NCBI GenBank assembly: GCA_963767275.1
Contig: CAVYDL010000006.1
Span: forward strand, 296,379 to 360,378
Direction of reading: 5' to 3'
Length of the DNA: 64,000 nucleotides
Source of the DNA: an uncultured delta proteobacterium
GTDB lineage: Bacteria; Desulfobacterota; Binatia; UBA9968
The notes under the pieces were generated by a model that searched no databases, was not told the origin of the DNA, and saw only the letters and a list, made by a program, of their open reading frames with translations. The position numbers were made by a program, and so were the translations under genes. The stretch's first letter is position 1; every line of letters starts with the position of its first letter. Of this stretch, positions 13,026 through 40,208 are shown piece by piece.

Positions 13026-14105
13026 ATGCTGATTCTTTCCAACGATGAGATCGAAAAAATTCTGCCGGTGGGCGCTTGCCTCGACGTGCTCGAAGACGCC
13101 TATCGCGATCTCGGCAACGGCATGGCGGCGACGGTGCCGCGCTATGACGTCTTCAGCCCGACGAAGTCATCAAATGAGTTCTACGAGTACAAGACTATGA
13201 GCGGCGTGCTGCCCAATCGCGGCATCGCCGCGCTGCGGCTCAACTCCAGCGTGGTCAAGTGGTACGAGAAGGCGGGCGGTATACGCAAGGACAAACTGCC
13301 GGTAGCCGGCGGCGACCGCTACGTCGGGCTAATCATGCTGTTCAGCACCGAGACCGGCGAGCCGCTGGCGATTTTTCCCGACGGCTATGTGCAGAAGTTG
13401 CGTGTCGCCGGCGCCAGCGCGATCGCAGCGCGCTATCTGGCGCGCAAGAATTCCACCAGGATGGCTTTACTCGGTTCTGGCTGGCAGGCGAGCGCGCATC
13501 TGGTCACGATGGCGATGGTTCGAGATCTGAAACAGGTCCGAGTGTTCAGCCCGACGCCGGAATCGCGCCGCAGGTTTGTCGATGAATGGCGCGGCCAGGT
13601 TAATGCCGAATTGATCGAGTCGGCTAGCGCCGCCGAAGCGATCAAAGACGCCGACATGGTCGTGTGCACGACCAACTCGATCTCGGCATTATTTCCCGGC
13701 GAGATCTTGGAGCCGGGAATGCACGTCTCATGCGTCAAGCCGTGCGAGCTCGACGCTTTGACTTACAAGCGCTCCGATCCGCTGATTATTCACTGGCGCG
13801 AAGCGAAACCGTTTCAAATCGCCATCGGCGTCGATCCGCAGTCGATTCCCGATGTCGCTGAGGGTTGGCACCATCCGATCACCCGCGAAGACGCGCCGAT
13901 CTGGGATTTGCCGGCGATCTCGCAGTTGGTCAACGGCGAGCACCCCGGACGCACTCGAGAAGATGCCATCACGTGCTTTTGCAATAACGTCGGCCTTGGT
14001 TTGCAGTTCGCCGCCGTCGGCAGTGAAGTATTGGCACGCGCGCGTGAGGCGCGAGTAGGTCGGGAGATTCCGACGGATTGGTTTTTGGAAGATGTGCATC
14101 CGTAG
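13026..14105 (+). CDS. Ornithine cyclodeaminase / mu-crystallin family protein
   Basis: ORF 13020..14105. The ATG at 13026 is 6 nt after AGGAGG (13014-13019). An OCD-family Rossmann segment (MALLGSGWQASAHL) is present. Confidence 0.8.
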   Translation: MLILSNDEIEKILPVGACLDVLEDAYRDLGNGMAATVPRYDVFSPTKSSNEFYEYKTMSGVLPNRGIAALRLNSSVVKWYEKAGGIRKDKLPVAGGDRYVGLIMLFSTETGEPLAIFPDGYVQKLRVAGASAIAARYLARKNSTRMALLGSGWQASAHLVTMAMVRDLKQVRVFSPTPESRRRFVDEWRGQVNAELIESASAAEAIKDADMVVCTTNSISALFPGEILEPGMHVSCVKPCELDALTYKRSDPLIIHWREAKPFQIAIGVDPQSIPDVAEGWHHPITREDAPIWDLPAISQLVNGEHPGRTREDAITCFCNNVGLGLQFAAVGSEVLARAREARVGREIPTDWFLEDVHP

Positions 14106-14437
14106 AATTTCGTTGAGATGCAAACCGCAAAGTTCAACGCCAGATCCATTTAGTAACGATCAAGCACCGCGAATATCATTCTGCGCAGCTACTTGCCCCA
14201 GAGATGCAGACACTTGATCTAACGATTGTCGAAGCTGCACACAACAAAAAAGTATTAGCTGCTGCGCCGCGGCCCTTTCGGAGCCGAGATAAGCGCTAAA
14301 CTCTAAGTTAATTCCGTACAGAAACTGTAAAGTAAATTTACAGAAAAAGTCACACTGTGCATGGAGTCTCAAGCTGTTTCACGATCTATATGATCGAGCG
14401 GCCGCATTGGCGATTGTCTTTTAATTTTCAAGACTTT

Positions 14438-14579
14438 CCCTAGCAGGCTGCTGAAAAACTCCTAGGAGTCCTTCGCCGTCGCTCAGGACGAACGGAGGGG
14501 AGATGATATCATTGATGTTTTTCCGTTCATGCTGAGGTACTCGAAGCATTCCGGACCTTTTTTCAGCACCCTGCTAGGG
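14438..14579. repeat. MITE-like element: 21-22-bp terminal inverted repeats (CCCTAGCAGGCTGCTGAAAAA / TTTTTTCAGCACCCTGCTAGGG) flanking about 100 bp
   Basis: Arms at 14438-14458 and 14558-14579 are reverse complements with one mismatch. An internal 10-bp perfect palindrome CTCCTAGGAG lies at 14460-14469. It sits in a noncoding, AT-richer region. Confidence 0.45.
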
Positions 14580-14732
14580 CGCAGTCGAGCTTTCGGTTCC
14601 ACTGGCGTTTTCGATTGAGCAATTTCAAGCCGTTGATAATTCGACGGATGCACACACAGCCTGCGTGCGCGGTCGCACGACGGGAGTGTAACGTTAAATC
14701 AATTTATTTTTTTCCATCGCTCTATTATCTTA

Positions 14733-14761
14733 TTGACAGAGAAAAAACACTTTCGTAAACT
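14733..14761 (+). promoter_or_regulatory. Near-consensus sigma70 promoter (TTGACA-17-TAAACT) with AT-rich UP-like tract
   Basis: -35 TTGACA at 14733-14738, 17-nt spacer, -10 TAAACT at 14756-14761. Upstream 14701-14730 is about 75% A/T. Confidence 0.55.
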
Positions 14762-14793
14762 AATTGTCAGCAGGGAAAGGAGGTGGTCCAGAC

Positions 14794-14835
14794 ATGATTG
14801 ATTTAAGTACTGGCTGTGAGGTGGCTGAGACTTAG
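14794..14835 (+). CDS. 13-codon small ORF (MIDLSTGCEVAET) with strong SD
   Basis: AAAGGAGGTG at 14776-14785 lies 10 nt before the ATG at 14794. Stop TAG at 14833-14835. Within the ORF, GAGGTGGCTGAG is complementary to the downstream CTCAGCCACC (14890-14899), which allows alternative pairing. Confidence 0.3.
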   Translation: MIDLSTGCEVAET

Positions 14836-14903
14836 GCTCTAGGCGGCGACTCTGAATGGAGATTCGGGCCTAGAACCTGAGAATCTCCCTCAGCCACCGC
14901 AGT

Positions 14904-14956
14904 GGCCCGCTGCACCGGTCGCGCAAGCTGCCGAGTGTAGCGGGCCTTTTTATTTT
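14904..14956 (+). terminator. Rho-independent terminator (GGCCCGCT...AGCGGGCC + TTTTTATTTTT)
   Basis: 8-bp GC-rich stem at 14904-14911 / 14939-14946, followed by a T run to 14956. The T run overlaps the stop codon of the convergent HEAT-repeat gene. Confidence 0.6.
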
Positions 14957-23002: not shown

Positions 23003-24028
23003 ATGGCGAAGACGGCGGTGGTAGTCGATAAAGAGTATCTGAAACACCAGCCCGGCGAGTCTCATCCGGAGCGGCCGGAGCGCATCAAAGTGTTGCTCGA
23101 CTTGGCGGGCGGACTCGATCCCGAGAAATTTCAGTTGCTGCCGCCCCAGCCTGCCAAACGCGCCGATCTCATTGCCACCCATGGAGAAGCTCACGTCAAA
23201 CTTATCGAAGCGACGGCGCGGCATAATCGCTACGCCTTGGACGGCGACACCATCACCAGCCGCGATTCGTTTGCTGTTAGTTTATTGGCCGTGGGCGGAT
23301 TCATTGGTCTGCTCGATGCGATCGCTGCTAAAGATTGCCGTAACGGTTTTGCTCTGGTGCGGCCGCCGGGCCATCATGCCCTGCGCAACCATGCCATGGG
23401 GTTTTGTCTGTTCAACACCATGGCGATCGGCGCAGAATATTTGCAGCGCACCTACGGCGCGAAAAAAATTCTCATCATGGATTGGGATGTGCACCACGGC
23501 AACGGCACACAGGATGCTTTCTACGCGGACCCCCGCGTGCTGTTTATTTCCAGCCATCAATATCCCTATTATCCCGGCAGCGGTGCGGCCAACGAAGTCG
23601 GCAGCGGCGCGGGCGAAGGATTTACGGTCAATATTCCGCTGCCCGCCGGTTGTGCCGATCCGGAATACGCCCAGGCGTTTCACGATATCGTCGTACCGGC
23701 GGCGGAAAAATTCGCACCCGATTGGATTCTGGTGTCCGCCGGTTTCGATCCGCACCGGCGCGATCCCCTCGGCGGCATGGGGGTGACGGATGGAGGTTTC
23801 GCGCTCATGGCACACCGCTTACTCGGGCTCGCCGACAAATTCACCGACGGCAAAATCGCTTTCCTGCTCGAAGGCGGGTATGATCTCGCCGGTTTGCGCG
23901 GTTCGGTGGCGGCAGTGCTGGCGGCCATGCAATCCGCCGCCGTCCCGGCCGTTGACGCCGCCCAATTGGGTGCCAGTCAGATCGCCCCGCTGATTCGGCA
24001 CATTCGAGAGCTTCATGAGCGTTATTGA
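23003..24028 (+). CDS. Histone-deacetylase-family amidohydrolase (acetoin utilisation AcuC / acetylpolyamine amidohydrolase-like)
   Basis: 341 aa with HDAC-fold signatures (RPPGHHA, DWDVHHGNGTQ, EGGY). Confidence 0.8.
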   Translation: MAKTAVVVDKEYLKHQPGESHPERPERIKVLLDLAGGLDPEKFQLLPPQPAKRADLIATHGEAHVKLIEATARHNRYALDGDTITSRDSFAVSLLAVGGFIGLLDAIAAKDCRNGFALVRPPGHHALRNHAMGFCLFNTMAIGAEYLQRTYGAKKILIMDWDVHHGNGTQDAFYADPRVLFISSHQYPYYPGSGAANEVGSGAGEGFTVNIPLPAGCADPEYAQAFHDIVVPAAEKFAPDWILVSAGFDPHRRDPLGGMGVTDGGFALMAHRLLGLADKFTDGKIAFLLEGGYDLAGLRGSVAAVLAAMQSAAVPAVDAAQLGASQIAPLIRHIRELHERY

Positions 24029-24109: not shown

Positions 24110-25360
24110 GTGAACTCAACTGAAGCACGCCGAGTTGTCGTGACGGGTATTGGTCTGGTCACGCCATTGGGTACCGGAGTCGAAAAGAATTGGCAGGCGT
24201 TGATGGCCGGCCGCTCGGGTATCCGCAAGATCAGCCGCTTCAACGCTGATGCGTTTGCCTCGCGTATCGCCGGCGAAGTGCCTGACTTCAAAGCCGAAGA
24301 TTATATCGAAGCGAAAGAGATCAAAAAAATGGATCTCTTCATTCACTACGCGATGGGTGCTTCGGCCCAGGCCATGGCCGACAGCGGTCTTAAAATCGAA
24401 GGCGAGTTCGCCGAGAACGTCGGCGTCATCATCGGCGTCGGCATGAACGGCCTCGATACGCTCGAAGTTACCAAAGAAGCGCTGATGGCCGGCGGGCCCC
24501 GCAAGATATCGCCATTTTTCATTCCCAAAGTCATTTCCAATCTAGCCCCTGGCCATGTGGCGATTCGTTACGGCGCCAAGGGCATCAATTTAACCCCGAC
24601 CTCGGCCTGTGCTTCGGGCACCCATGCGATCGGCGAGGCGTATCATATGATTCGCCGCGGCTTGCAGGATGCGGTGATCGCCGGCGGCGCCGAAGCGGCG
24701 ATCACACCGCTGGGCGTGGGCGGGTTTGCCGCCATGAAAGCGCTGTCGACGCGCAACGACGAGCCCGAGCGCGCCAGCCGGCCCTTCGACAAAGAGCGCG
24801 ACGGCTTCGTCATCGGCGAGGGCTCCGGGATTTTGATCCTCGAAGAACTCCAGCATGCGCTCGAGCGCGGCGCCAAAATCTATGCCGAAGTGCTCGGCTA
24901 CGCGGCTAACGGCGATGCCTATCATATGACCGCGCCGGCGCCAGAGGGCGAAGGAGCGGCGCGCTGCATGCGCTTGGCCTTGAAAGACGCCGGCATTGCG
25001 CCGAGCGACGTCAGTTACATCAATGCCCACGGCACGTCGACGGAATATAACGACGCCAACGAAACCACGGCGATTAAAACCGTTTTCGGCGAAGCCGCGG
25101 CGAAAGTGGCGGTGAGTTCGACCAAGTCGATGACCGGCCATTTGCTCGGCGCCGCCGGCGCGGTGGAGGGCGTCTACTCGGCGCTGGCGCTGCATCACGG
25201 CATGCTGCCGCCGACGATCAACTATGAAAATCCCGATCCAGCTTGCGATCTGGACTATGTTCCCAACCATGCGCGCAAAGCCGACATCAAGATCGTGCTG
25301 TCCAACTCCTTCGGTTTTGGCGGCACCAACGCCTGCGTGATTTTCGGGAGGTGCGCATGA
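24110..25360 (+). CDS. fabF: 3-oxoacyl-ACP synthase II
   Basis: 416 aa. GTG start at 24110. KAS II blocks are present ([14 protein letters not shown], active-site Cys in [24 protein letters not shown]). Its stop overlaps the fabH start (ATGA). Confidence 0.9.
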
Positions 25361-26350
25361 GCCGTTCCGAACGCCGCAGCGTGATCCTCGGTACCGGCTC
25401 CGAACTGCCGTCGAAAATAGTCACCAATCATGACTTGGAACAAATCGTCGACACCAGCGACGAGTGGATCACCGTGCGCACGGGCATCAAAGAACGGCGG
25501 ATTCTTGAAGATGGCAAGGGCAATGCCGATATGGCCTATGAAGCCGCCAAGCGCGCTCTCAACGACGCCGCGTCGATGCGCAAGATCTCGATGCCATCAT
25601 CATGGGAACGGTTTCGGCCGATTACCTTTAATCCCAGTTCCGCCTGTGTGCTCGAGGACAAGCTCGGTGCGCGCAATGCGTTTTCCTTTGACGTCGGCGC
25701 CGCCTGTGCCGGCTTTCTCAATGCCCTTGCCGTGGCGCGATTTATTCGTGCGCAGCGGCAAAGATCAATAAGGCTCTGGTGGTCGGCTCCGACGCCCTAA
25801 GCCGCATGCTCAATTGGAAGGATCGCGGCACCTGCATTCTTTTTGGCGACGCCGCTGGCGCGGTGGTGTTGGGCGCGTCCGAAAACGGCTCCGGTGTCTT
25901 GAGCACCAAACTGCGCACCGACGGTTCCTACGTTAAGCAGCTCTACGTTCCCGCCGGCGGTTCGCTCAAACCTCCCGTCGGGAGACGGTGCGCAACAACG
26001 AGCACACGATCACCATGAACGGCAAAGAGGTATTCAAGATCGCCGTGCGTTCCATGGAAGAGATCAGCCGGCAAGCGCTCGACGAAGCCGGTGTCAGCAT
26101 CGATCAAGTGGCTCTGGTGATTCCCCACCAAGCCAACAAACGCATCATCGTTGCGCTGGCCGAACGGCTCGGCGTGCCGATGGACAAAGTCATGATCAAT
26201 GTCGACAAATACGGCAATACGTCGGCGGCATCGATACCGGTCGCCCTCGACGAAGCCAGACGCGCCGGCCGCATCAAGGCCGGCGACATTGTTTTGTTGA
26301 ATGCTTTCGGTGCCGGCTTCGCTTGGGGCGCGGCGGTGGTCAGATTCTGA
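25357..26350 (+). pseudogene. fabH: 3-oxoacyl-ACP synthase III (fabH) interrupted by about four frameshifts
   Basis: The start ATG at 25357 overlaps the fabF stop. FabH sequence is spread over three frames (ORFs 25243..25800, 25779..26018, 25988..26350). There is also an internal excursion at about 25571-25628, where DAQDLDAIIMGTVSADYL is read in another frame. The apparent indels are a missing G near 25570 and a T-run length change at 25627-25629. Confidence 0.75.
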
Positions 26351-26390
26351 ACTTGTTCAAGCCGTTCAAAACGTTCAAGTGGTTCAAGCT
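26351..26390. repeat. GTTCAAG-rich direct-repeat element (4 copies of GTTCAA[G/A] in 40 bp)
   Basis: Read directly after the fabH stop. The same motif family appears at 1511-1541, 1565-1591 and 61591-61600. Confidence 0.4.
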
Positions 26391-26411
26391 GTCTAGGTTT
26401 CTCGCTCACAT

Positions 26412-27763
26412 TCAATTCTTGTTTGCGATACTGCTTTCTACTTCAGCGCGCAGCTTTTTCAGGGCGGGAGAAAAGTCCACCGGATAGCGCGCGGGATTAC
26501 AAATTGCTTTGACGGCTTCCGGCAGGCGCTTAAATTCTTCCAAGAATGCCGAGCGGCTCTCTGCCAAATTCGCCAGTCGCAGCGCTTTTCCTCGATCCAT
26601 TACTTTTCTCAGCAGCGGTTCGGCACCGGCAATATTGTCGGCGCGCAGGCCGATGAGATCGCTGTTAAGATGACCCTCGGCGTCGAGGTGGCGATATACC
26701 TGTTTCTTTGCCGGCCAGGAAATTTTTCCGGTGCTTAGTTTTTGCACGGGCCGTTCGGCGTATTCGACCAGTTTATAAGACATGTCGGTCCACGGTGCAT
26801 CGGCCGAAGTGCCCATCTTGGTGCCGACGCCGTAGCTGTCGAAGGGAACTTGTGCAAGGGAAAAATCGCCAAGATCGAATTCATCCAAGCCGCCGCTGCC
26901 GAGTATTTTGACCTCGCCAAGCCCGGCTTCATCGAGAATCTGCCGCACGGCGCGAGCCTGTGCCGGCAGATCACCGCTGTCGATGCGCACGCCGATGAGT
27001 TTTTCGCCACGACTGGCCATTTCTCCGGCGACGTTGAGCAGCGTTGCGCGCGCCGGCGAGAGTATCGTAGGTGTCGATTAACAGGATCGTCGCGTGCGGA
27101 AAACTTGCGGCGTAGGCGCGAAAGGCGTCGATCTCGCGCTCGAAGGTCGATGACAAACGAGTGCGCCATGGTGCCGACGATCGGCACGCCGTAGTTTTTT
27201 CCGGCCATGACGTTGCTGGTGCCGGTAAAACCGGCGAGATAGCTGGCGCGCGCCACCTTCATGCCGGCGTCGATGCCATGGGTGCGGCGCAGCGCGAAGT
27301 CGACCACCGGCCGCCCGCCCGCGGCATGAACGCATCGGGCGGCTTTGGCGGCGATCAGGCTTTGCAGATGAACTTGATTGATGACGAAGGTCTCGGCGAT
27401 CTGCGCCTGGATCATCGGCGCGGTGATTTCGAGGACCGGTTCGTCCGTGAAAAATATCCGTCCTTCGGGGATCGCCCACACTTCCCCGGTGAATTGGAGA
27501 TCGACCAAGTAATGGAGAAAGTCATCGTTGAAAAGATTCTGCGCCGCGAGATAATCGAGAGCGGCGTTATCGAAGGATAGACTTTGCAGATAATCGAGGA
27601 CGTCGTGAACCCCGGCACAGACGAAATAGCCGCGATTGGGTGGATAACTGCGGATAAATAGACTGAACGTCGCCGTGCCGAGCCGTTGCTCGCGAAAATA
27701 GCCTTGCGCCATGGTGAGCTGGTAGAGGTCGGTGAGCAGTGTGAGATTTTCCTGGTTTGCCAT
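26412..27763 (-). pseudogene. pncB: Nicotinate phosphoribosyltransferase (pncB) interrupted by two frameshifts
   Basis: PncB sequence runs through three minus-strand ORFs: 26735..27763 (N-terminus to MAHSFV), 26971..27156 (FEREIDAFRAYAASFPHATILLIDTYDTLAGARNAAQ) and 26412..27020 (MASRGEKLIGVRIDSGDL... to the C-terminus). The shifts lie near 27160 and 27030. Confidence 0.75.
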
Positions 27764-29001: not shown

Positions 29002-29781
29002 TTGAACGTCGTCGTCTGCGGTAAAGTCATTCCCGCGAGCACGGTCATCATCGAGCTCGACGCCAATACCAAACGCATGGTGCGCAAGGGTGTCCCCCAC
29101 GAGTTGGACCCGGCAGCCGCCAGCGCCGTCGAAGAAGGCTTGCGCCTCACGGAAAAGCATGGCGGCACTGTCGTGCTCATCACCATGGGCACCAGCGATG
29201 TGACCATTGGCATACGCAACGCGCTGGCGATGGGGGTGACGTCGGCGGTGCACATACTTGACGACGCGGTGGCGGGTTCCGACACGCTGGCGACGGCAAA
29301 GCTGTTGGCCGCGGCGATAAAAAAACAGCAATTCGATATCGTGCTGTGCGCCACTGAAAGCGGCGATAGTTATTCCGGTATCGTTCACGGACAGATCGCT
29401 CAGCTCTTGGGCATTCCGCCACTCACTTTTGCCAAGGAAATCACCGTCGATGGCGGCAACGTCACGATCAAACGCCAGAGCGAGGCGGGCTATGATCTGG
29501 TCGGATCGACGTTGCCGGTATTGGTGGCCTGCAGTAGCGGCATCAACGAACCGCGTTATCCGCAGTTGAAGGGAATCATGGCGGCGAAGAAAAAAGAGAT
29601 CAAAGTCTATAGCGCCGCCGATCTCGGTCTAGCGCCGGACCAGGTGGGCGAAAAAGGCGCGCGGGAAAAAGTTTTAACAGTAGGCCGGCCACCCAAGCGG
29701 CAAGCCGGTAAAGCGGTAACCGACGAAGGGGAAGGCGGCAAGCAAATCGCGGACTTTCTTGCTGAAATCAAGGTGATTTAA
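29002..29781 (+). CDS. etfB: Electron transfer flavoprotein beta subunit
   Basis: ORF 28939..29781. Probable TTG start at 29002 after GGGAGAG (LNVVVCGKVIP...). EtfB blocks are present (VVLITMGTSD, QFDIVLCATESGDSYSG). Confidence 0.85.
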   Translation: MNVVVCGKVIPASTVIIELDANTKRMVRKGVPHELDPAAASAVEEGLRLTEKHGGTVVLITMGTSDVTIGIRNALAMGVTSAVHILDDAVAGSDTLATAKLLAAAIKKQQFDIVLCATESGDSYSGIVHGQIAQLLGIPPLTFAKEITVDGGNVTIKRQSEAGYDLVGSTLPVLVACSSGINEPRYPQLKGIMAAKKKEIKVYSAADLGLAPDQVGEKGAREKVLTVGRPPKRQAGKAVTDEGEGGKQIADFLAEIKVI

Positions 29782-30750
29782 GTGGCGGAGACAATCTGGG
29801 TATACGCGGAAGTTGGCGACGACAAGATAACCACCACCTCATTGGAGATGCTCGCCAAAGCCTCCGAAGCCGGCAAAGCCGAGGTGGTGCTCCTCGGCCC
29901 GGCGCCTGAGGATGCCGTGCAGACGCTGGCCAATCACGGTGCCAGCAAAATCTACCGCTCCGCCGACCCAGTTTACAAAGATTATCTGACATTGCCCGCG
30001 GCCGAGACCGTCGCCGGCCTGATTCAAAAGCATAATCCCGCGGTCATGTTGTTCGCGTCGAGTTATGCCGGCCGCGATTTGGTCGCCAATCTGAGCGCCC
30101 GGCTCGACTGCGGGGCGATCACCGATGTCGGCGATTTCGAGCTGAAAGACGGCAGCGTGGTGGCGACTATTCCAGCCCTCGGGGCCAGCTACGAGAATAC
30201 CAGCACCTTGCTCAATCCGGGAACCAAGCTTCTAGTCGTCCGTCCGAAGTCTTTCGAACCGAAAGAAAACCCGCAAGCTCTGGCTGTCGAAGAAGTGCCG
30301 GCGCCGGCGGACGAAGGCTTGCGCAAAGTCCACCTGAAGGAACGGGTCGTGGTCAAACGCGAAGGCCCGTCGCTGGAAGGCGCCAAGATCGTCATCTCCG
30401 GCGGCCGCGGCCTCAAGGGCGAAGAGCAATTCAGTCTGCTCAAAGATCTCGCCGATGTTCTCGGCGGCGCCGTCGGCGCCAGCCGCGCCGCAGTCGATGC
30501 CGGCTGGGTGCCCTACGCCATGCAGATCGGCCAGACCGGCAAGACGGTCAAGCCGGATATTTATTTTGCCGTCGGCATCTCCGGCGCCGTGCAGCATCTT
30601 TCGGGAATGAAGACCGCCAAATACATCATCACCATCAACAAAGACCCGGACGCGCCGATCTTCCAGTACTCCGACTTCGGCGTCGTCGGCGACCTCTTCA
30701 AAATCGTCCCGCAGCTGATCGAAGAGCTGAAGAAGCGCAAGGGCGCGTAG
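29782..30750 (+). CDS. etfA: Electron transfer flavoprotein alpha subunit
   Basis: 322 aa. GTG start immediately after the etfB stop (TAAGTG). FAD-binding C-terminal blocks are present ([31 protein letters not shown]). Confidence 0.85.
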
Positions 30751-30864: not shown

Positions 30865-30915
30865 TCAAAATATCAGCGCTACGATGATTTAACCCGCGCC
30901 ACGACTACAACATAG

Positions 30916-31983
30916 TCACAGCAACCGGCCGCCGGGCATGTGCGGAAAGGCGCTCATTTCATGGGCCGGAGCTAACGGTTGAACTTTGTCCAAATAGGCG
31001 GCGGTGAGTTGATCGAGCCGCGTGATGCCGAGCAGTCCCATGGTGATGATGATCTCGCTTTTAAGTATTTCGAGCACCCGCACCAAGCCAGCTTGACCGG
31101 CGGCGGCAAGTCCCCAGCCCTGCAGTTTGCCGATGGCCACGGCGTGTGCCCCAAGCGCGATGGCCTTGAGTACGTCGCTGCCGCGAACGATACCGCCGTC
31201 GAGTAGGATCTTCGCTTCGCCGCGGACTGCAGCGACGATTTCCGGCAGCATATCGATGGTGGCCCGCCCATGGTCAAGCTGCCGCCCGCCATGATTGGAC
31301 ACGTAAATCGTCCCGACGCCATGGGCCACGGCGATGGCTGCATCTTCGGCTGTGGCTATACCCTTTAAAATAAACGGTAGTCCGGCCATCTCCTTGATGG
31401 CGTCCAAAGTATCCCACGTAAGGCCGGCGCGGTATTCGTAACCGACACCGCGGCGGCTTGGCGGCAGCCAGCGGTCCATCATCTGGCGCTCGCGGTGGCC
31501 GTAGTGCGCGGTGTCGACAGTCAGGCAGATCGCAGAATAGCCAGCCTGCTTCACTCGGGTCACAAGATTGCCGACCCACTGCAAGTCGCCTTGCACGTAG
31601 AGTTGAAAGATTTTGGGGTTGCGGCTGGCCGCGGCGATCTCTTCCAGGCTGGGTTGGGTCACCGAGCTGACAAAGTTCACGGTGCCGAATGCTTCAGCGG
31701 CTTTGGCGACCGCGACTCCGCCCGCGGGCGTAATCGACTGCAGCGAACCGATCGGCGCGAGCATGACGGGGATGGCAAGTTTATGTCCGAGAAAAGTTGT
31801 CGAGGGGTCTATCTTGGATACATCGACGAGCACCCGCGGGCGAAAGGCGAGACTATCCAGGCCGACGCGGTTGCGCCGCATGGTTGTTTCGGACTCGGCG
31901 CCGCCGGTCAAGTAGTGCCATACGTTGTCGCTCAGATTGCGCCGCGCCGCCACGATAATCTCTTGGTTGGAAACAAAATCCAT
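30916..31983 (-). CDS. FMN-dependent alpha-hydroxy-acid dehydrogenase/oxidase (L-lactate dehydrogenase / glycolate oxidase family), paralogue A
   Basis: ORF 30916..32016 (GTG). The ATG at 31983 (MDFVSNQEI...) aligns with the start of paralogue B. TIM-barrel FMN blocks are present (SNHGGRQLD, LDGGIVRGSDVLKA). Confidence 0.8.
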   Translation of the reverse strand: MDFVSNQEIIVAARRNLSDNVWHYLTGGAESETTMRRNRVGLDSLAFRPRVLVDVSKIDPSTTFLGHKLAIPVMLAPIGSLQSITPAGGVAVAKAAEAFGTVNFVSSVTQPSLEEIAAASRNPKIFQLYVQGDLQWVGNLVTRVKQAGYSAICLTVDTAHYGHRERQMMDRWLPPSRRGVGYEYRAGLTWDTLDAIKEMAGLPFILKGIATAEDAAIAVAHGVGTIYVSNHGGRQLDHGRATIDMLPEIVAAVRGEAKILLDGGIVRGSDVLKAIALGAHAVAIGKLQGWGLAAAGQAGLVRVLEILKSEIIITMGLLGITRLDQLTAAYLDKVQPLAPAHEMSAFPHMPGGRLL

Positions 31984-32145
31984 TAGCCTAACGTAATCTT
32001 TCTGTTTCTCCGCCACCCGAGGGCGTATCGTGATATGCCCCTACACTCGGAATTTCTCTGGGAATTTCTTTGCACTCTTTGCACTGCTGTCCGTGAGAAT
32101 TTGCGCAGCTTGAGCAAACTTTTCGCAATTGCCGATGGCAGAAGA

Positions 32146-32166
32146 GGGCGGGTTTCAAACCCGCCC
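32146..32166. repeat. Second exact copy of palindrome GGGCGGGTTTCAAACCCGCCC (REP-like copy 2)
   Basis: Identical 21-mer to 30835-30855. This copy lacks the T-run. It lies between the alpha-hydroxy-acid dehydrogenase gene and the ABC ATPase gene. Confidence 0.6.
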
Positions 32167-32242
32167 CTACAATTACAGAGTCTTTTTTGTGCTCTTTGCG
32201 TTCTTTGTGGCCATTCTTCTTTTCGGTTGTCGCTTTGCCGCG

Positions 32243-33337
32243 TCAATCCTCACTCACGATGACGCAATTTTCGGCATGGGCCGCGGCGCAGATCGACTGG
32301 CCGGGCTCGAATCGTTGGGATGGCGGCGCGATCACGTGTAAAACTCTTCCCGAAGCGAGTTCCACCGTATAGTCCACTGCATCGCCGAAATAGATCGAAC
32401 GGCGAACGATACCGGGAAACAGGTTGTAACCTTGATCGGCGAGCTGCCGCACAGCGTCTCGCCCGGCGACCAACTTGATATTATGCGGACGCAAGCACAC
32501 TGACACTTCGCTCGCCGGCGCGACAGCGCCGCCGTCAGCCAGACGAATCTTTACGCCATCAGATAGAATGGAGCGGCCATCGCCATCGCTGTTGACGCGT
32601 CCGCTCAAAATATTCGCTTTGCCGACAAACTCCGCGACGAACCGGGTTTGCGGTCGGTCGAATATCTCCGCCGGCGGTCCAACCTGAACGAGACGGCCGC
32701 GGTTGAGCACGGCGATCCGGTCGGAGGTCGCCATCGCCTCCGCCTGGTCGTGGGTGACATAGATGGTGGTAATTTTGAATTCTTCATGCAGCCGGCGGAT
32801 CTCGAAGCGCATCTCTTCGCGTAAATTGGCGTCGAGGTTGCTCAGGGGCTCATCCATTAGGAGAATATGCGGTTCGACCACCAGCGCGCGGGCCAAGGCC
32901 ACCCGTTGCTGTTGACCGCCAGACAGTTCCGCCGAATAGCGATCTTTCAACTCCGCCAGACGCACCACGCCAAGCAGCTTGGTGACCTTGGCGGCAGTTT
33001 CCGCTTTCGTAAGTTTTTTGAATTTGAGGCCATAGGCAACGTTTTGCGTCACCGTCATGTGCGGCCAGACGGCGTAGCTTTGAAAGATCATCGACATGTT
33101 GCGCCGCTCCGGCGGCACCAGAATGCTCGGTGATGAGATTACTTCCCCCGCGACGCGGATCTCTCCGCCGTCGGGCTGTAAGAAGCCGGCGAGCAATCTT
33201 AGGGTCGTGGTCTTGCCGCAGCCGGACGGACCGAGGAGCGACACGAATTCGCCGTCGCCGATATCCAAATGGAGATTGTCGACCGCTGCGGCGCCGGTGA
33301 AATGTTTGCTGAGACCTCGAATCGAAACTATGGCCAT
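32243..33337 (-). CDS. ABC transporter ATP-binding protein (PotA/FbpC/MalK-like importer ATPase)
   Basis: 364 aa with Walker A (GPSGCGKTT), signature (LSGGQQQRVALARAL) and Walker B (LLMDEPLSNLD), plus a C-terminal TOBE-like domain. Confidence 0.85.
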   Translation of the reverse strand: MAIVSIRGLSKHFTGAAAVDNLHLDIGDGEFVSLLGPSGCGKTTTLRLLAGFLQPDGGEIRVAGEVISSPSILVPPERRNMSMIFQSYAVWPHMTVTQNVAYGLKFKKLTKAETAAKVTKLLGVVRLAELKDRYSAELSGGQQQRVALARALVVEPHILLMDEPLSNLDANLREEMRFEIRRLHEEFKITTIYVTHDQAEAMATSDRIAVLNRGRLVQVGPPAEIFDRPQTRFVAEFVGKANILSGRVNSDGDGRSILSDGVKIRLADGGAVAPASEVSVCLRPHNIKLVAGRDAVRQLADQGYNLFPGIVRRSIYFGDAVDYTVELASGRVLHVIAPPSQRFEPGQSICAAAHAENCVIVSED

Positions 33338-33575
33338 GAGCTATCCTGGACTATTCAGCAGGAAAATGAACGATAATTTATCGACGGAGAATCCTGTAGG
33401 CGCGAAGACATCAGCGCCAATATTCGTCATGATCGGTGCTGGGCAAAATGTTTGACCTTTTAGCAGTTAACTTCATAGCAGATCGCTTCGCTTGCGGCTT
33501 ACAGCCAGCGCCGCTTTGCCTTCGCGCCGAAAGGGTTACGCCGCCTCGACCCGGTTTTACCGCCAAAAATCCGGA

Positions 33576-35303
33576 CTATTCCCGCGTCGCCACCACCTCC
33601 CGTCCGCCGAACCACTGGACCGCAAGTATGACCGCGAAGGAGACCAGCAGCAAAAGAATTCCTAAAACGGCGATGACTCCCACTTGTCCTTCTTCTTTCA
33701 GATCGAAAATGACCACCGAGACAACCTTCGACTTCGGCGCGAATAACAGGATCGCGGCGCTGAGTTCGCGGATTACGCCGATAAAGATGAAAGACCAGGC
33801 GGCGATTAGGCCCGAGCGCGCCAGCGGCGCGGTTACATCTTTGAGGGACATGAGCCGGTTGGCGCCGATAATCCGGCTGGCGTCTTCAAGTTCCGGGTGA
33901 ATGCTCTTGAAGGTGGACTCCGCCTGGGAAAATCCAATCGGCATTTCTTTGGTCAGGAATGCCACGAAGAGAATCCATATCGTGCCATAGAGCACCAAAG
34001 GCGGCCGCGAGTAGGCGATAAACAAGCCGACGGCCAGGACAATGCCGGGAATGACCAATGGCGCCAGGGCGAAAAAACTGAGATAGCGCGCGCCGCGAAA
34101 CAGATTGCGATTGGTAATGTAGGCGATCAGCGTCGCTAACAGCGTGCCGAGTGTCGCGGTGATCAGGCCCAATTTGAAAGTATTGTAAATCGCCAACTGG
34201 GTATCGCCGTACTCGAAAAAACTAAAATAAAGATTATGGAGCGTGAAATTATCCCAGGTCAACGGCAGCGCCCAGGCTTTCGAGAGTGCCGCCTTCAGCA
34301 GGATCCAATAGGGCAGGAAGACCGAAAGCGAAAGGATTCCGAACACCAAAAGCAGCACCGGAATACGGCTCCAGCCGAGCCGGATCAACCGTTTCTGTCC
34401 GCCTTTGCCGCCGACCGTGCTGTAGCCTTTGCGCCCGAGGATTCTTTTTTGCACGGCGAGCAACAGCATCGTTGCCAGCAGCAGCGGTACGGAAAAGGCG
34501 GCGGCCATATCCAAGCGCGGCGGATATTGAAACAGCGTCCAGATCTGCGTCGTGATCGTGTGCAGGCCGGCAGGCAAGCCGAGAATCGCCGGCGCGCCGA
34601 AGAGCGACAAAGATTGTAGGAAGGCCAGGATGAAGCCGCCGATCAGGGCTGGCAGCGCCAGCGGCAAGGTAACCGTCCAGGCGGTTTGCCACTTGCTCGC
34701 GCCCAATATCTCCGCGGCATCTTCTAGATCCGACGAAATCAGTTCACAGACGTTGGCGATCATTGAGAAGACATAGGGGAAGCTGTAGAGAGCCATGACG
34801 AAAATCAGCCCGGGCATCGAAAAAATATTGAAAAGCGCATCTTCCGAACCGGTCACAGAGCGGTAGAGTTTGTTCAGCGAACCGGCATTGGGCCCGGCAA
34901 GCAGCGTCCAGGCAAACGCCCCCAAGAACGGCGGCGTCACAAACGAAGCCATCACCAGCGCACGAATCGGTTTTTTCCACGGCAGATCCGTCCGGGTCAC
35001 CAACCAGGCAAGCAGTGCGCCGATGATCACCGCGATCCCTGCGACCCAGGTGGAGATGATCAAGGTGTTCCAGATCGCCTTGAGAAATTGTTGGTTGGTA
35101 AAGACTTCAAGATATCTGCTGAGCGTGATGCCGCTGTCATCCCACAGACTGGCCCGGAAAATCGCGCCGAGGGGGAAAAGCATCAAGAAAACCAGAAGCA
35201 GCGCCGCGCCGATCCACAGGGGCAGAGTCGGGTCCGTGAATCGAAGCGCGGCCCAACCCCTGTGTTCCCCTCGATCGAGGGTCGATGTCTGCAAAGCCGG
35301 CAT
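33576..35303 (-). CDS. ABC transporter permease, fused double-domain (iron(III)/thiamine-type FbpB-like)
   Basis: 575 aa with two tandem 6-TM permease modules, each carrying an EAA-like loop. Confidence 0.8.
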   Translation of the reverse strand: MPALQTSTLDRGEHRGWAALRFTDPTLPLWIGAALLLVFLMLFPLGAIFRASLWDDSGITLSRYLEVFTNQQFLKAIWNTLIISTWVAGIAVIIGALLAWLVTRTDLPWKKPIRALVMASFVTPPFLGAFAWTLLAGPNAGSLNKLYRSVTGSEDALFNIFSMPGLIFVMALYSFPYVFSMIANVCELISSDLEDAAEILGASKWQTAWTVTLPLALPALIGGFILAFLQSLSLFGAPAILGLPAGLHTITTQIWTLFQYPPRLDMAAAFSVPLLLATMLLLAVQKRILGRKGYSTVGGKGGQKRLIRLGWSRIPVLLLVFGILSLSVFLPYWILLKAALSKAWALPLTWDNFTLHNLYFSFFEYGDTQLAIYNTFKLGLITATLGTLLATLIAYITNRNLFRGARYLSFFALAPLVIPGIVLAVGLFIAYSRPPLVLYGTIWILFVAFLTKEMPIGFSQAESTFKSIHPELEDASRIIGANRLMSLKDVTAPLARSGLIAAWSFIFIGVIRELSAAILLFAPKSKVVSVVIFDLKEEGQVGVIAVLGILLLLVSFAVILAVQWFGGREVVATRE

Positions 35304-35321
35304 GAACGAATCTATTCGCTG

Positions 35322-36344
35322 CTACGCGCCAAAATATTCAATGAAACGTTTTCTCATCTCGGCGTTGCGCTTTTCCAATTCGTCGGCGTCCGCCGCCAAC
35401 AGTTTCAAGTCCTTGAGCTTGGGCTTGTCCGCCGGATAGGTCACCTCTGGATGGCCGGTATAAAGTCCTTCCTTATCCGCCAACAATTGCTGCGACTCCT
35501 TGGCGAAAATAAACTCAGTGAAGAGTTTTGCCGCATTGGGATGGGGCGCGTCTTTGGCGATGGCCACCGGCGATACCACTAGCGGCACGCCCTCTTTGGG
35601 ATAGATGATCTTGATCGGGTTACCCTGTTTTTGGGTTTTGTAATAAAAATATTCCGCGCCGTTTACGCCCACCGGCCGTTCTCCCGATGCGACCACACCG
35701 GCAGGATCGTTGGCCGACTGGACGATATGCAATTTGTTTTTTGCCAGATCGCGAAAGTAGTCCCAACCGTAAAGGTTCACCAAGGTCAGCACATGAGTCA
35801 TGATGATGCCGCTGTAACCGGGATGGGCGGTGACCATCTTGCCGCTCCATTTGGGATTCAAAAGATCCTTCCAGGTTTGCGGCGCGTCCTTGTCCGCGAC
35901 TATTTTTGGGTTATGAGCGATCACCGAAAGCGTCGCCCGCATACCATAGTAAAAACCGGCCTTGTCCTTAAACCCCTCCGGAAAACTGGCGACGCCCTGG
36001 GGCGTGAACTTCAAGAGCATCCCTTTGTCCTTGAGCAACTCGAAGTGGCCGGCATCCGAAGTATGCACGATATCGGCGTTTTTCAATCCCGCAGAGGCTT
36101 CCTGCATGAATCGTTGCAGCACCCTCTGGGAGCCGTTGCGGTGCACTTCCACTTCGATGCCTTTGTATTTGTTTTGAAAATAGTGCGCGATCGCAGTAGA
36201 AGACGGAATTGCCAGCGAAGTATACCAGACGACCTTGCCTTCCTTTCGCGCCGCCTGAATTAGGGCGGCGTCTTGCGCCGCAGCCAGCGACGCCAGGGCG
36301 AAAATCCCGTTGAGAATGACGAAGTAAATACCAATCTTTTTCAT
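35322..36344 (-). CDS. ABC transporter periplasmic substrate-binding protein (Fe3+/polyamine-type, family 1)
   Basis: 340 aa with a signal peptide (MKKIGIYFVILNGIFALASLAAA). SBP family-1 topology. First gene of the SBP-permease-ATPase operon. Confidence 0.75.
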   Translation of the reverse strand: MKKIGIYFVILNGIFALASLAAAQDAALIQAARKEGKVVWYTSLAIPSSTAIAHYFQNKYKGIEVEVHRNGSQRVLQRFMQEASAGLKNADIVHTSDAGHFELLKDKGMLLKFTPQGVASFPEGFKDKAGFYYGMRATLSVIAHNPKIVADKDAPQTWKDLLNPKWSGKMVTAHPGYSGIIMTHVLTLVNLYGWDYFRDLAKNKLHIVQSANDPAGVVASGERPVGVNGAEYFYYKTQKQGNPIKIIYPKEGVPLVVSPVAIAKDAPHPNAAKLFTEFIFAKESQQLLADKEGLYTGHPEVTYPADKPKLKDLKLLAADADELEKRNAEMRKRFIEYFGA

Positions 36345-36539
36345 GATGGCCTCCTAGTCCTTCAATTAGATCCTCGCGGTTTCAAGTTACTTCCGGGCCG
36401 GCACAATATCGCGGAATTCGATTTTCAGTCAATACGGCGATCGCGGCAATCCCGATCAACGCGTATCATCGAAACTGCAGTGTCTCCGGTCTAGCGCTCC
36501 TAGAGGGTCACATCAGGCGCGGAGGTTTCCGCAAGATCA

Positions 36540-37997
36540 TCAAACACTTCGTCGTGGATGCCCCTTCACAGGTGTCCCAGAAGATTTAGGTTTTTTGCCC
36601 TTCTTGGCGCGCCGACTGGTCAGAGCGCGGAGCAGGGGGCTCAAACTTTTTAGCTTTTCCATGCGGGCGACCAATTGGATCACCGTCTCGGCGTCCTTGT
36701 CCGCCAGCACGAGGCCGGCACAGTCGCGAAATTTGTCGCTCAACTCAGCCCAGCTCATCGGTTTTTCCGGGTGTCCACGGGCGACGTCATAGCGACCTTC
36801 AATCACCCGCCCATTCTTCAGCCGGATGCGAATCCGCGAACGCACCTGATCGTAGCCGAGCCTTTCGAGTTCATCATCGACACGAAGCGTCACCCGCTTC
36901 ATCAACCCGATGACCTTCTTGTCGCGCACTTTGCGGTCCTGGAACTGCGCGATGCCGGCCTTGTGCTCGAGGATGGCGATTGCCATGCAGAATGGAATGC
37001 TGAATTTTCCTTCCAGCGCGGTCGTGGGCATCGGATAGATCAAGGCGTTGGGCACGTTGGAATTGGTGCCGACTTCGACGTGATCGATTTCGGCCGCGCT
37101 AAGAGCATGCTGTTTGACCAGGTCGAGCATCAAATCTTGCGCCGGGTGAGACAGTGAGCCGGATGGATATGGCTTGATGGAAATTCCCGGCTGCTTCATG
37201 AAGTAAGGCGAACCCAGGCGCCCGGTAATCTTGCTCTCGTCGCAACCGCCGGCCATGGCGTTGAAAAAGCCGCGGCGGGCTTCGAGAATATTCGCCGCCG
37301 CAGTGAAGCCGTCGCGCGCCAACAAGGCGGCGCTCACACCGTTCTCGGCAGCGCGTCCGGCGTGCAGCGGCTTGGTCATGGTGCCGAAGTTTTCGCGCAG
37401 GCCCGATGCCATGCTGGCGGCAATACCCAATGTTTGAATCAACTTCCGCTCGTTGAGTCGAAGGATTTTGCCCACCGCCATGGCGGCGCCGATGCCGCCC
37501 ATGGTCGCGGTGGAGTGAAACCCATCCTGATAGTGGCGTGGGTTGATCGCATCGGCGATGCGGCACTCGACCTCGACGCCTAACAGATAGGCCAAAACGA
37601 ACGCCTCGCCGTTGATTTTTTCTTTCTCACCGATCGCCAACACGGCGGCGAGCACCGGCGTGGTCGGATGCGTCAAGAGCCCGTAAACGGCTTGCTTGGA
37701 GGTCGATAGTTGGGTGTCGTCGTAATCCATCGCATGGCCGGCTACGCCGTTGGCCAGAGCTGCTTTGGGTGCCGGCGCAGAGAGCATGGTGCCGACAATC
37801 GACGACTCGCCCGTGCCGTACATCAGCCGGACCTGGGTTTGAATAATCCGCGAGCACTCGTCGGTGGAACCGGCCACGGCGACGCCGAGTCCATCCAGGA
37901 TGAAGCCGCGCGCCAGTTGGACGACCTCTTTGGGAATATCGCGGTAGTGTGTCCGCGCGACAAAGTGCGCAACTTCTTGCGTCAGTCCCATCGACAC
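36540..37997 (-). CDS. MmgE/PrpD-family protein (2-methylcitrate dehydratase-like)
   Basis: 485 aa with PrpD-family blocks along the whole length (GLGVAVAGS, HAMDYDDT, TMGGIGAAMAVGK). Confidence 0.8.
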   Translation of the reverse strand: MSMGLTQEVAHFVARTHYRDIPKEVVQLARGFILDGLGVAVAGSTDECSRIIQTQVRLMYGTGESSIVGTMLSAPAPKAALANGVAGHAMDYDDTQLSTSKQAVYGLLTHPTTPVLAAVLAIGEKEKINGEAFVLAYLLGVEVECRIADAINPRHYQDGFHSTATMGGIGAAMAVGKILRLNERKLIQTLGIAASMASGLRENFGTMTKPLHAGRAAENGVSAALLARDGFTAAANILEARRGFFNAMAGGCDESKITGRLGSPYFMKQPGISIKPYPSGSLSHPAQDLMLDLVKQHALSAAEIDHVEVGTNSNVPNALIYPMPTTALEGKFSIPFCMAIAILEHKAGIAQFQDRKVRDKKVIGLMKRVTLRVDDELERLGYDQVRSRIRIRLKNGRVIEGRYDVARGHPEKPMSWAELSDKFRDCAGLVLADKDAETVIQLVARMEKLKSLSPLLRALTSRRAKKGKKPKSSGTPVKGHPRRSV

Positions 37998-38263
37998 TCT
38001 CCTGCGGCTCCTTCGCTGAGAAAAAAATTTTCAGGTTTTTGCGTGGCTAATATGTTTCGTTCGCTTTAGTTTTGAACATCATGGAGTGGACAAATGACAC
38101 GAAGGTTCAGTCAATTTATGACTCCAGGCTTCGTGCTCTGGGTGTCCTTCGGGGTGCGAGCATTTTCACAATAAACCCGGAAGAAGCTTTGGAGTTGACC
38201 GCGGGGCATGTCTTTGATGTTGGCGACTCCGAAACAATATTCGGCGACGCATTTGTCGGTTGA

Positions 38264-39037
38264 TCATTCCCACAGGCCTTGCGGCAGAGGTAGACCGGCG
38301 AGATCTTCAGCCGTGAGCCGCCCCTGTGGCTCGATACCGAAGCGCTCGAGTACGGCCATCAGCTGGCGCGTGTGCTGCGCGGAGTGCCAAGTGGAGCGCT
38401 CGAAAAGCTGATGCATCGGCGGCGTGCCATAGAAGGTATTCACCGGTTGCTGGCAAGTTCTGTCCGTGAGTTGGCTCCACCAGCTCTCAAGTCGCGCAAC
38501 AATGCCGTCACCGTAGACGGCAATTTCCTCTGCCGCCGTGCAGGTTCCGTCCGCCGGCGGCGTGTTGGCATTGTTGGTCCGGTATTCGACGCCATCAATG
38601 GCGGTTTCGAGAAATGCTTCGCCGATGCGAAAGATGTGGTGGCTCAAGAGTCGAAGTGAGCGGTCGCGATTATCGATCGCCCGCTCGACTAACCGTTCGC
38701 GGGGGAGTTGACGAGTGTACCGCTGTGCCGCGCGCAGCACCGTTAGCCATTTCGCTATCAACGAGGTTGGGGCGAGCGGCGTATGTCCGCTGCCTTGCAA
38801 GCCGACGAACTCGGCGACATCTTCCAGGTTCTGGCAAAAGATGAATTGATCATCGCTAGCCAAAACCGGTACGGTGCGAACGCCAAGTTTGCCCAAGCGC
38901 GCTAGGGCGGTGGGATCATTCAAGATATCGAGCGCGATGAAGTCGATGCCTTTTTTCGAAAGAAACTCTTTCGTTCGTAGGCAACTGCTTCAACCGGGCT
39001 GGGTGAAAAGGACGAATTTAGCTTCGACGTTTTCCAT
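38264..39037 (-). CDS. Glutaredoxin-like / DinB(YfiT)-like fusion protein with in-frame TGA at the redox motif (candidate selenoprotein; alternatively Cys-to-stop error)
   Basis: ATG at 39037. Reading in frame gives MENVEAKFVLFTQPG-[TGA, minus-strand 38992..38990]-SSCLRTKEFLSKKGIDFIALDILNDPTALARLGKLGVRTVPVLASDDQFIF. This is a Grx/NrdH fold with U/stop at the first Cys of the CxxC motif. It continues into the tool ORF 38264..38923, which carries a DinB-like HxxxHxxQ tail (HSAQHTRQL). The mRNA hairpin CGAAAGA-GUU-UCUUUCG (plus 38957-38973) starts 17 nt after the UGA. Confidence 0.5.
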
Positions 39038-39145
39038 AGGTTATTGTCAAATGAACCGCTCAGTCGATGGCACAGCTATCAACGGTAGGCACAACTGTCA
39101 ACCTTAATAAGGGGCCGGCAGAGGGATCTAGGATGAATGCTTGAG

Positions 39146-40105: not shown

Positions 40106-40183
40106 TCCGAGGCGGAGCCGAGGAATCTCATCTTTTTTGTATGCGGCAGACGGGACGAGATCCCTCGCTTCACTCGGGATGAC
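40101..40183. repeat. 83-bp imperfect inverted repeat (GTCATTCCGAGGCGGAGCCGAGGAATCTC ... GAGATCCCTCGCTTCACTCGGGATGAC)
   Basis: Arms of 27-29 bp at 40101-40129 and 40157-40183 with about 80% complementarity and a T-rich 27-nt spacer. It overlaps the predicted 5' end of the SBP gene. Confidence 0.45.
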
Positions 40184-40208
40184 GGAAGCGGAAGATCGGC
40201 GCATAGGC

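Follow-up and report, generated by a model that had tools for sequence, protein, structure and literature searches.

Frameshift indels in fabH and pncB of a Binatia contig as probable consensus errors on a strain-variant haplotype

Disrupted genes of the fabH-pncB locus

The window, that is, the whole 64-kb stretch of DNA analysed, carries genes for beta-ketoacyl-ACP synthase III (KAS III; fabH, 25357-26350, plus strand) and a pncB-type nicotinate phosphoribosyltransferase (pncB, 26412-27763, minus strand), both broken by single-base indels that are present in the sequence, as the first-pass annotation had reported. Uncorrected, fabH measures 994 nt against the 993 expected and pncB 1352 nt against 1350, and in tblastn searches against either of them the match was divided among three frames. 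Six frameshifts had been proposed across the two genes; we counted seven, five in fabH and two in pncB. The fabF gene and the long ORFs of the window were intact, as had been claimed, and Rfam and tRNA scans of the 64-kb window returned no matches.

The reading frame of fabH changes by -1 at 25568/9, by +1 at 25630, 25736, and 25764, and by -1 again at 25976. Specifically, the first lesion (25568-25570) is a 1-nt deletion after 25568 with an A>G beside it at 25570, where the window reads GACGC-CGCGTC and the conspecific sequences L086 and L085 read GACGCTCACGTC; the G at 25570 is the base found in 6/6 outgroups. The site had earlier been read as a G missing from GCCGGCGTC near 25570, which did not hold, the conspecifics having GCTCACGTC at 25568. 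Nor was the second lesion (25627-25631) a T5 run shortened to T3 at 25627-25629, as had been supposed; it is a complex net +1, with the frame change at 25630, in which the window has CCTTTAATCCC and the conspecifics have CCCTTTTCCC, the latter coding for a conserved YPFPS. The third is a +1 C at 25736 (GTGG[C]GCGAT), the fourth a +1 with changed neighbouring bases at 25764-25766 (window AAAGATCAAT, conspecifics AAAG-CTAAT), and the fifth a 1-nt deletion at 25976-25977 (window CTCCC-GTCGGG, conspecifics CTCCCTGTCGGG), all five being given on the plus strand. From 25736 to 25764, 28 nt lie in a third frame, the frame-2 peptide being DLFVRSGK, for which homologues have GDLFVRSGK, and it was this stretch that the earlier count of four fabH frame changes had missed.

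With the indels corrected, FabH was 330 aa long, as are its homologues throughout (identity up to 89% among cluster representatives), and was identical to that of L086 at 323 of 331 positions (330 residues plus the stop). Over its full length it scored 431 bits against NCBIfam NF006829 (cut-off 249) and 420 bits against TIGR00747 (cut-off 292), and matched Pfam PF08545 and PF08541 end to end. Its motifs AACAGF, PHQAN, and YGNTSAAS align with those of the solved KAS III 2ebd, and we take them to be the motifs of the Cys-His-Asn catalytic triad, after C112, H244, and N274 of E. coli FabH.

In pncB, the two closely spaced frame changes noted earlier were recovered as +1 insertions 112 nt apart in this minus-strand gene, at 27037 (with a nearby G>T at 27034) and at 27149 (GGTC[G]ATGAC on the plus strand), each found in the window but in none of L085, L086, and L087. 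Corrected PncB agreed with L086 at 436 of 450 positions (449 residues plus the stop), reached 579.8 bits in a full-length match to the equivalog NF006696 (cut-off 503), and comprised the domains NAPRTase_N, NAPRTase, and NAPRTase_C. The product of intact pncB has 449 aa in both L086 and L087, and one residue fewer (448 aa) in L002 and L003. The identities first given to both genes are thus borne out, their corrected products lying above curated NCBIfam cut-offs.

Programmed ribosomal frameshifting, or some other recoding, would have the cell itself join these frames, and the frame changes are indeed there, but nothing further speaks for it. Five shifts of both signs within 410 nt of fabH, indel sites that share no slippery motif, and orthologues and conspecifics that keep a single frame (330 aa for FabH and 448-449 aa for PncB) reduce its probability to a negligible level. 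Separately, a GATC methylation motif was considered as a cause of the indel sites and dropped, because GATC was touched at few sites only.

Conspecific assemblies and other broken genes

Three conspecific assemblies were available for comparison, namely the ENA contigs ERZ25039516 contig_3225 and ERZ25039485 contig_6558 and a Logan contig from ERR11593888, which were 98.0-99.9% identical. An intact fabH (330 aa) was present in contig_3225 and contig_6558, and an intact pncB (449 aa) in contig_3225 and the Logan contig. All seven of the fabH and pncB indels were private to the window, with L085, L086, and L087 agreeing against it wherever they covered the site. The comparison with close relatives that the first-pass annotation had recommended returned intact versions of both genes and, in addition, sister assemblies with private frameshifts of their own elsewhere. 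In contig_3225, private indels broke ORFs at window positions 15251 and 34803, and a private deletion was located in an intergenic region at 57113. In contig_6558, we found 15 private insertions in 12.9 kb, by which fabF was split, accC was fused to the adjoining biotin-carrier gene, and pncB and etfB were broken, along with further private ORF-breaking indels at 43387, 43570, and 52756.

Within the window, frames were followed by a six-frame Viterbi scan, used in place of codon-usage scoring of ORFs, under which antisense frames had also scored well. The scan found the shifts of pncB and ilvD and, in fabH, the larger ones, and is blind to excursions shorter than about 60 nt. Three genes besides fabH and pncB proved to be broken. 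A 304-aa gene, of unassigned family (8571-9487, plus strand), has +1 insertions at 9342 and 9477; it is intact in L090 (contig_3225), and deletion of both insertions made the window gene 304 aa again. In an MFS transporter gene (9515-10817, minus strand), there is a +1 at 9638, near the 3′ end, close to which the scan changes frame, the translations placing the true C-terminus in another frame. This gene is intact at 433 aa in L090, and deleting the base at 9638 restored 433 aa in the window; five substitutions lie in it at 9623-9714. Finally, ilvD, for dihydroxy-acid dehydratase (58868-60542, plus strand), has an extra G (60242) in the GG run at 60241-60243 and appears as two ORFs, 58868-60385 and 60246-60542. 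It was flagged by the frame scan, is intact at 557 aa in L089, and regained 557 aa in the window when the extra G was deleted.

In total, the window holds 11 ORF-breaking indels, of which nine are insertions, and most window indels are outside long homopolymers, the textbook site of nanopore error. Seven of the 11 fall inside 1.6 kb, and such clustering arose in 0 of 1,000,000 uniform simulations. The earlier description of the lesions as clustered thus stands, but they are not confined to fabH and pncB, as had also been claimed, given those at 9342, 9477, 9638, and 60242.

These observations bear on the reading in which fabH and pncB are genuine pseudogenes, decaying in a cell that obtains its KAS III activity and its NAD through other enzymes. 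The indels are truly in the sequence, and pncB is dispensable in many bacteria with de novo NAD synthesis. Against decay, conspecifics with 99.9% identity beyond the affected region have both genes intact, and the disruptions are not reproduced in L085, L086, or L087 wherever the site is covered. Moreover, unrelated genes of the window (ilvD, the MFS transporter, and the 304-aa gene) are broken too and the sister assemblies break different ones, and this difference in the genes broken from assembly to assembly points to a technical cause. The excess of insertions likewise runs contrary to bacterial norm, the usual indel bias in bacteria being toward deletion.

A divergent patch and the origin of its indels

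The fabH and pncB indels lie in a divergent patch (25568-27707, 2140 bp) with 40 window-private substitutions and the seven private indels. Private substitutions reach 18.7 per kb there, versus 1.4 per kb in the flanks (15 in 10.7 kb), and indels 3.3 per kb, versus about 1 per 30 kb elsewhere. The total private difference of the patch is about 2.2%, with indels making up about 0.3%, and its edges are sharp. Away from the indels, 12 private substitutions in fabH were synonymous and 3 non-synonymous, a departure from neutral expectation at P=3e-5, while those of pncB were 6 synonymous to 13 non-synonymous and, on count alone, indistinguishable from neutral (P=0.41). At 34 of 39 sites the window allele also occurs in outgroup species, and of the 17 sites that are informative for the nearest outgroup, 12 have it there, where 1/3 would be expected (P=0.002). 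Judged from these sequence patterns, the substitutions of the patch have the character of a genuine strain allele. When JGI metagenome contigs were scanned for exact matches to two stretches that each hold several private alleles (26269-26303 and 26100-26135), a second, independent copy of this haplotype was not recovered. A FabF search of genome contigs gave, among the matches listed, other species only, at 85% or less, and exact-protein searches with the FabF, kelch-like, and HDAC-like proteins of the window gave no matches, the start codon of the FabF query being probably wrong.

For the pseudogene reading, the patch is of roughly the same extent as fabH plus pncB, and pncB lacks a synonymous bias. 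However, because the fabH substitutions are biased toward synonymous change and their alleles recur in outgroups, fabH would have been under purifying selection until essentially now. This leaves too short a phase of relaxed selection for five indels: given no more than about four substitutions from a neutral phase and a general indel-to-substitution mutation ratio of roughly 1:10, five fabH frameshifts have a probability of P=6e-4. The corrected frames of both genes, moreover, contain zero in-frame stops and zero large deletions. Altogether, we regard genuine decay as very unlikely.

The same substitutions bear on a different artefact, a gap filled from a single read and left unpolished, or a join of two contigs in a hybrid or scaffolded assembly. 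Sharp tract edges would fit such an origin, and a difference of about 2.2% is no more than lightly corrected long reads can show, but random read errors are neither synonymous-biased nor recurrent in outgroups, as the patch alleles are. From the synonymous bias and the outgroup recurrence it follows that the substitutions are not read noise, and only the indels, at about 0.3%, look like error. We therefore hold a gap fill or join to be highly unlikely.

Two further readings take the indels as real. One is a localized mutational burst, for example through error-prone repair synthesis during the recombination that imported the patch, leaving foreign alleles and frameshifts together; the other has a Binatia strain import a 2-kb foreign fabH-pncB segment in which error-prone repair or a recent burst of indels inactivated both genes. 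In keeping with a burst, the foreign-looking SNPs and the indels share the same 2.1 kb, and the smaller cluster at 9342-9714 likewise pairs indels with substitutions. Yet strong counter-selection would be expected on seven frameshifts in two housekeeping genes, and we know of no bacterial process that yields about 3 indels per kb. The sister contigs also tell against it. In contig_3225, a recombinant SNP patch in etfA holds 21 synonymous changes and zero indels, so divergence alone does not generate indels. In contig_6558, a generally noisy contig, indels are about 4 times denser in the part diverged by 1.1% than in the near-identical part (P=0.006), an association of SNPs with indels of the same kind as in the window, which an effect of coverage fits better. 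We consider a burst extremely unlikely and inactivation of an imported segment improbable to a high degree; were the latter true, the cell would need a different condensing enzyme and would have to make its NAD de novo.

The explanation that we favour, with a probability of roughly 0.88, is that no gene has been lost and that the seven indels arose as errors of the consensus at a place where the contig tracks a divergent haplotype, one that was probably mixed or of low coverage. The contig that holds the window would come from the assembly of a long-read metagenome and represent an uncultured Binatia-like bacterium. It is 99.8-99.9% identical to a second assembly from this population, the exceptions being short patches in which the contig would follow another strain allele, either a recombined segment or the less common branch of a strain bubble. 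The patch at 25568-27707, which spans most of fabH and pncB, would then combine base substitutions that are real strain variation with seven single-base indels introduced in the consensus because the haplotype was backed by few or mixed reads. We infer both the sequencing platform of the window assembly and the origin of the indels in low or mixed coverage. Relatives are MFD bins of the Microflora Danica long-read project with Flye-style contig names, and Microflora Danica assemblies are Nanopore-only, built with Flye and one round of Medaka (PMC12313526). Residual indels, and a need to polish below about 40x, are reported in that paper and its predecessor (PMC12313526, PMC9262707), and gene splitting by indels has been reported for low-coverage bins (PMC9262707). 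The nine insertions among the 11 indels of the window resemble the all-insertion error profile of contig_6558, and one-base removals or fills restore full-length FabH, PncB, IlvD, MFS transporter, and 304-aa protein. Three observations weigh against this explanation: most of the indels are outside long homopolymers, the pncB substitution counts on their own fit neutral change, and the comparable etfA patch of contig_3225 holds zero indels. Because the indels are read as consensus errors, the organism most likely has working fabH, pncB, ilvD, and MFS genes.

The first-pass annotation was thus partly confirmed. Its preference for a local tract of low assembly quality over uniform error or real decay is supported by the intact conspecific genes, by the privacy of all seven indels, and by the private frameshifts that sister assemblies have in other genes, and strain heterogeneity, one of the causes it had listed, is specifically favoured, in that the indels coincide with private substitutions behaving as a real strain allele.

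Implications and comparison with known systems

The main value of these results is in quality control, and new biology is not implied. Read literally, the window would describe an uncultured soil bacterium without KAS III, NAD salvage, or dihydroxy-acid dehydratase, and such a reading would skew both metabolic reconstructions and pseudogene counts of the MAG. Indel errors appear to gather where a contig tracks a divergent strain allele, in the window assembly and in contig_6558, and local clusters of private SNPs and frameshifts could serve as a practical flag to show where to re-polish or where gene calling should allow for frameshifts.

Among known systems, the indel errors of Nanopore-only assemblies are alike in being single-base and assembly-private, in splitting conserved genes, in yielding to one-base repairs, and in affecting sister assemblies likewise; genes split by residual indels are the problem that IDEEL scoring and proovframe address. 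The errors of the window differ in that they are strongly clustered, tied to a strain-variant patch, and mostly not miscounts of long homopolymers. Collapsed strain bubbles and microdiversity offer a parallel in the mosaic nature of the contig, which is 99.9% identical to its sister except for patches of alternative alleles of 1-2 kb, although in the window the link from haplotype coverage to indels is one that we infer. Pseudogenes of reductive evolution, as in Mycobacterium leprae and recent symbionts, similarly show several frameshifts in conserved genes, but in the window selection on fabH is not relaxed, stops and large deletions are absent, conspecifics are intact, and the breaks are specific to each assembly. 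Programmed frameshifts of the prfB and dnaX type also involve a frame change within a conserved gene, whereas the shifts in the window are several, of both signs, absent in relatives, and without a slippery site.

Reading-frame breaks in fabH and pncB

The lesions that the first-pass annotation reported for fabH (beta-ketoacyl-ACP synthase III; from 25357, forward strand) and pncB (nicotinate phosphoribosyltransferase; 27763 down to 26412, reverse strand) were truly present in the window sequence, with the protein signal of both genes switching reading frames. When 17 proteins from L002, a related contig, were compared to the window by tblastn, all genes in the 15.7-30.7 kb interval gave single-frame matches apart from these two, each of which was spread over three frames. 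The gene order, comprising an HDAC-like gene, fabF, fabH, pncB (reverse strand), a PaaA/C-like gene, a 63-aa ORF, etfB, and etfA, was also kept in L002 and in L001, another related contig. Homologues of the conceptual FabH were 330 aa long, carried the source label Candidatus Binatia, and were at most 89% identical, as representatives of 90%-identity clusters.

From nucleotide alignments to relatives and conspecific contigs, we placed five indels in fabH (-1 at 25568/9; +1 at 25630, 25736, and 25764; -1 at 25976/7) and two in pncB (+1 at 27037 and 27149). The frame path of fabH was 1>0>1>2>0>2, that is, five changes rather than the four earlier claimed, a count that had overlooked a 28-nt segment encoding ..DLFVRSGK. 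Several lesions were complex, with a neighboring substitution beside them, and plain homopolymer miscounts formed a minority; the repairs originally proposed, a missing G in GCCGGCGTC and T3 for T5, disagreed with the conspecific GCTCACGTC and CCCTTTTCCC. Programmed frameshifting was excluded because frame changes were missing from all relatives. The 61-nt spacer between the convergent stop codons of fabH and pncB held four tandem 9-nt units at 26355-26390 (in order, GTTCAAGCC, GTTCAAAAC, GTTCAAGTG, and GTTCAAGCT), which could be a protein-binding array or a piece of a terminator region.

Broken reading frames across the window

A census by six-frame Viterbi scan, ORF inspection, and conspecific DNA comparison across most of the window exposed four further ORF-breaking insertions, and the description of the lesions as confined to fabH and pncB was therefore wrong. 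Two (both +1, at 9342 and 9477) fell in a 304-aa gene not assigned to a family (8571-9487, forward strand), one (+1, 9638) lay towards the 3′ terminus of the gene for an MFS transporter (9515-10817, reverse strand), and one (60242), which stood alone without a surrounding SNP cluster, was a surplus G in the GG run at 60241-60243 of ilvD (58868-60542). Deleting or filling single bases restored full-length, family-typical proteins in 5/5 affected genes of the window, and insertions made up nine of the 11 ORF-breaking indels. Despite the lesions elsewhere, the clustering is extreme and the earlier claim of it held: seven of the 11 fell inside 1.6 kb (fabH-pncB), matched in 0 of 1,000,000 uniform simulations. 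At 38.6-48.3 kb the noisy contig_6558 was the sole conspecific sequence for comparison, and ORFs there had full-length Pfam matches.

Compared with contig_3225, a second, smaller cluster at 9342-9714 contained three +1 insertions plus five substitutions (9623-9714). Like the fabH/pncB cluster, it spanned the 3′ ends of a convergent gene pair. Low-GC stretches (about 49%, versus 57% overall) were located at 1950-3400, containing a 327-aa ORF (2251-3234, reverse strand), and at 14105-14950, an 850-bp gap in which a convincing ORF was not found. Rfam and tRNA searches of the whole window returned no matches. In the HDAC-like gene, three successive window-private changes (TCG>CGC, 23534-23536) altered one codon (Ser178) and may represent a compensated micro-indel instead of three substitutions. 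The ORF at 38264-38989 (reverse strand) had a glutaredoxin domain whose match opened at position 12 of the 60-position profile, directly at the N-terminal limit of the reading frame; the gene called in the conspecific began further in still, and the start is putative.

Intact and broken copies in conspecific assemblies

A search for exact matches to the intact PaaA/C-like protein retrieved three conspecific contigs, and the suggested comparison with close relatives recovered intact copies of both genes. Contig_3225 (ENA ERZ25039516; 1.75 Mb, 99.4-99.9% identical to the window) had fabH (330 aa), pncB (449 aa), and ilvD (557 aa) intact; contig_6558 (ENA ERZ25039485; 467 kb, about 98.3%) had an intact 330-aa fabH and a pncB broken by its own indels; and a Logan contig (ERR11593888; 2.9 kb, 99.0%), which fabH lies outside, had an intact 449-aa pncB. 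After further look-ups, contig_3225 covered 1-38.6 and 48.3-64 kb of the window and contig_6558 additionally covered 39.2-58.0 kb. In three- and four-way alignments, 7/7 fabH/pncB indels were private to the window, differing from all other assemblies compared.

Each assembly of the species had private breaks in different genes. In contig_3225 these affected a HEAT-repeat protein (window 15251, L090) and an ABC permease (window 34803, L086 16897), and an intergenic private indel lay at window 57113 (L089). Contig_6558 had 15 private insertions within 12.9 kb, with fabF split, accC fused to the adjacent biotin-carrier gene, and pncB and etfB broken, and additional insertions in genes for pyruvate kinase (window 43387, 43570) and a CheB/CheR-PAS protein (window 52756) (L088); its private indels were insertions in every case. 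Their density was ~4x greater in divergent than in near-identical stretches (P=0.006), reproducing, in an assembly independent of the window's, the link between SNPs and indels. In L001, pncB was split by its own private indel. Gene annotations of these sister and related assemblies need frameshift-aware tools. An 8-kb block (30900-39150) encoding an FMN-dependent dehydrogenase, an ABC transporter, and MmgE/PrpD was present in the window and contig_3225 and missing from contig_6558, which in the 3 kb beyond it (39150-42000) was 7-19% divergent with many indels.

A strain-variant patch and the origin of the indels

Window-private substitutions were concentrated where the indels lie, with 40 in 25570-27707 versus 15 in 10.7 kb of flanks. 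Leaving out those adjacent to indels, fabH had 12 synonymous versus three non-synonymous (P=3e-5; neutral synonymous fraction 27%). At 34/39 sites one or more of six outgroup species shared the window allele, and the nearest outgroup did so at 12/17 informative sites versus 1/3 by chance (P=0.002). The pncB counts (6 synonymous, 13 non-synonymous) are uninformative taken alone; its replacements were conservative, most being equal to outgroup residues. Given this fabH bias, the outgroup recurrence, and the character of the pncB replacements, the substitutions of the patch (25568-27707) appear to be a genuine alternative allele, not noise. An unpolished single-read gap fill, which would leave their evolutionary look unexplained, is accordingly very improbable. 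A comparable 1-2-kb mosaic segment without indels occurred in etfA of contig_3225 (21 synonymous versus two non-synonymous), the patch of this contig (L086) at window 29500-30650 (etfA/etfB) holding some 21 private substitutions, of which nearly all were synonymous; this points to a population that is a recombination mosaic of 1-2-kb segments.

The fabH gene bears the signature of purifying selection up to the present. For it to have gained five frameshifts alongside no more than about four substitutions that could date from a neutral phase is improbable at the indel-to-substitution ratios ordinary in bacterial mutation spectra (P of about 6e-4 at 1:10). The intact conspecific copies, this selection signature, and the way in which breaks differ between assemblies make it very unlikely that fabH and pncB are genuine pseudogenes; real mutagenesis associated with recombination is superfluous to explanation and less probable still. 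Because of the selection on fabH, the one-base repairs, the assembly-specific breaks, the SNP-indel association, and the insertion bias, the seven indels are best read as assembly errors, not a biological feature. The local assembly error first suggested is supported, and the reading can be narrowed to consensus errors within a patch of strain variation, of low interest beyond the quality-control pattern.

The contig tracks a divergent haplotype across 25.57-27.71 kb and a smaller one near 9.3-9.7 kb. We infer low or mixed coverage as the cause: this haplotype probably had few reads behind it, or reads blended with those of the dominant strain, and the indels left by the consensus step amount to about 3 per kb there, compared with roughly one in 30 kb over the remaining sequence. 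Among the matches listed, relatives in the genome collection were bins from Microflora Danica whose contigs have Flye-style names, and the window may well derive from similar Nanopore-only data. Microflora Danica assemblies are Nanopore-only, produced with Flye and one Medaka round, and the same group's earlier benchmark advised extra polishing below about 40x (PMC12313526, PMC9262707).
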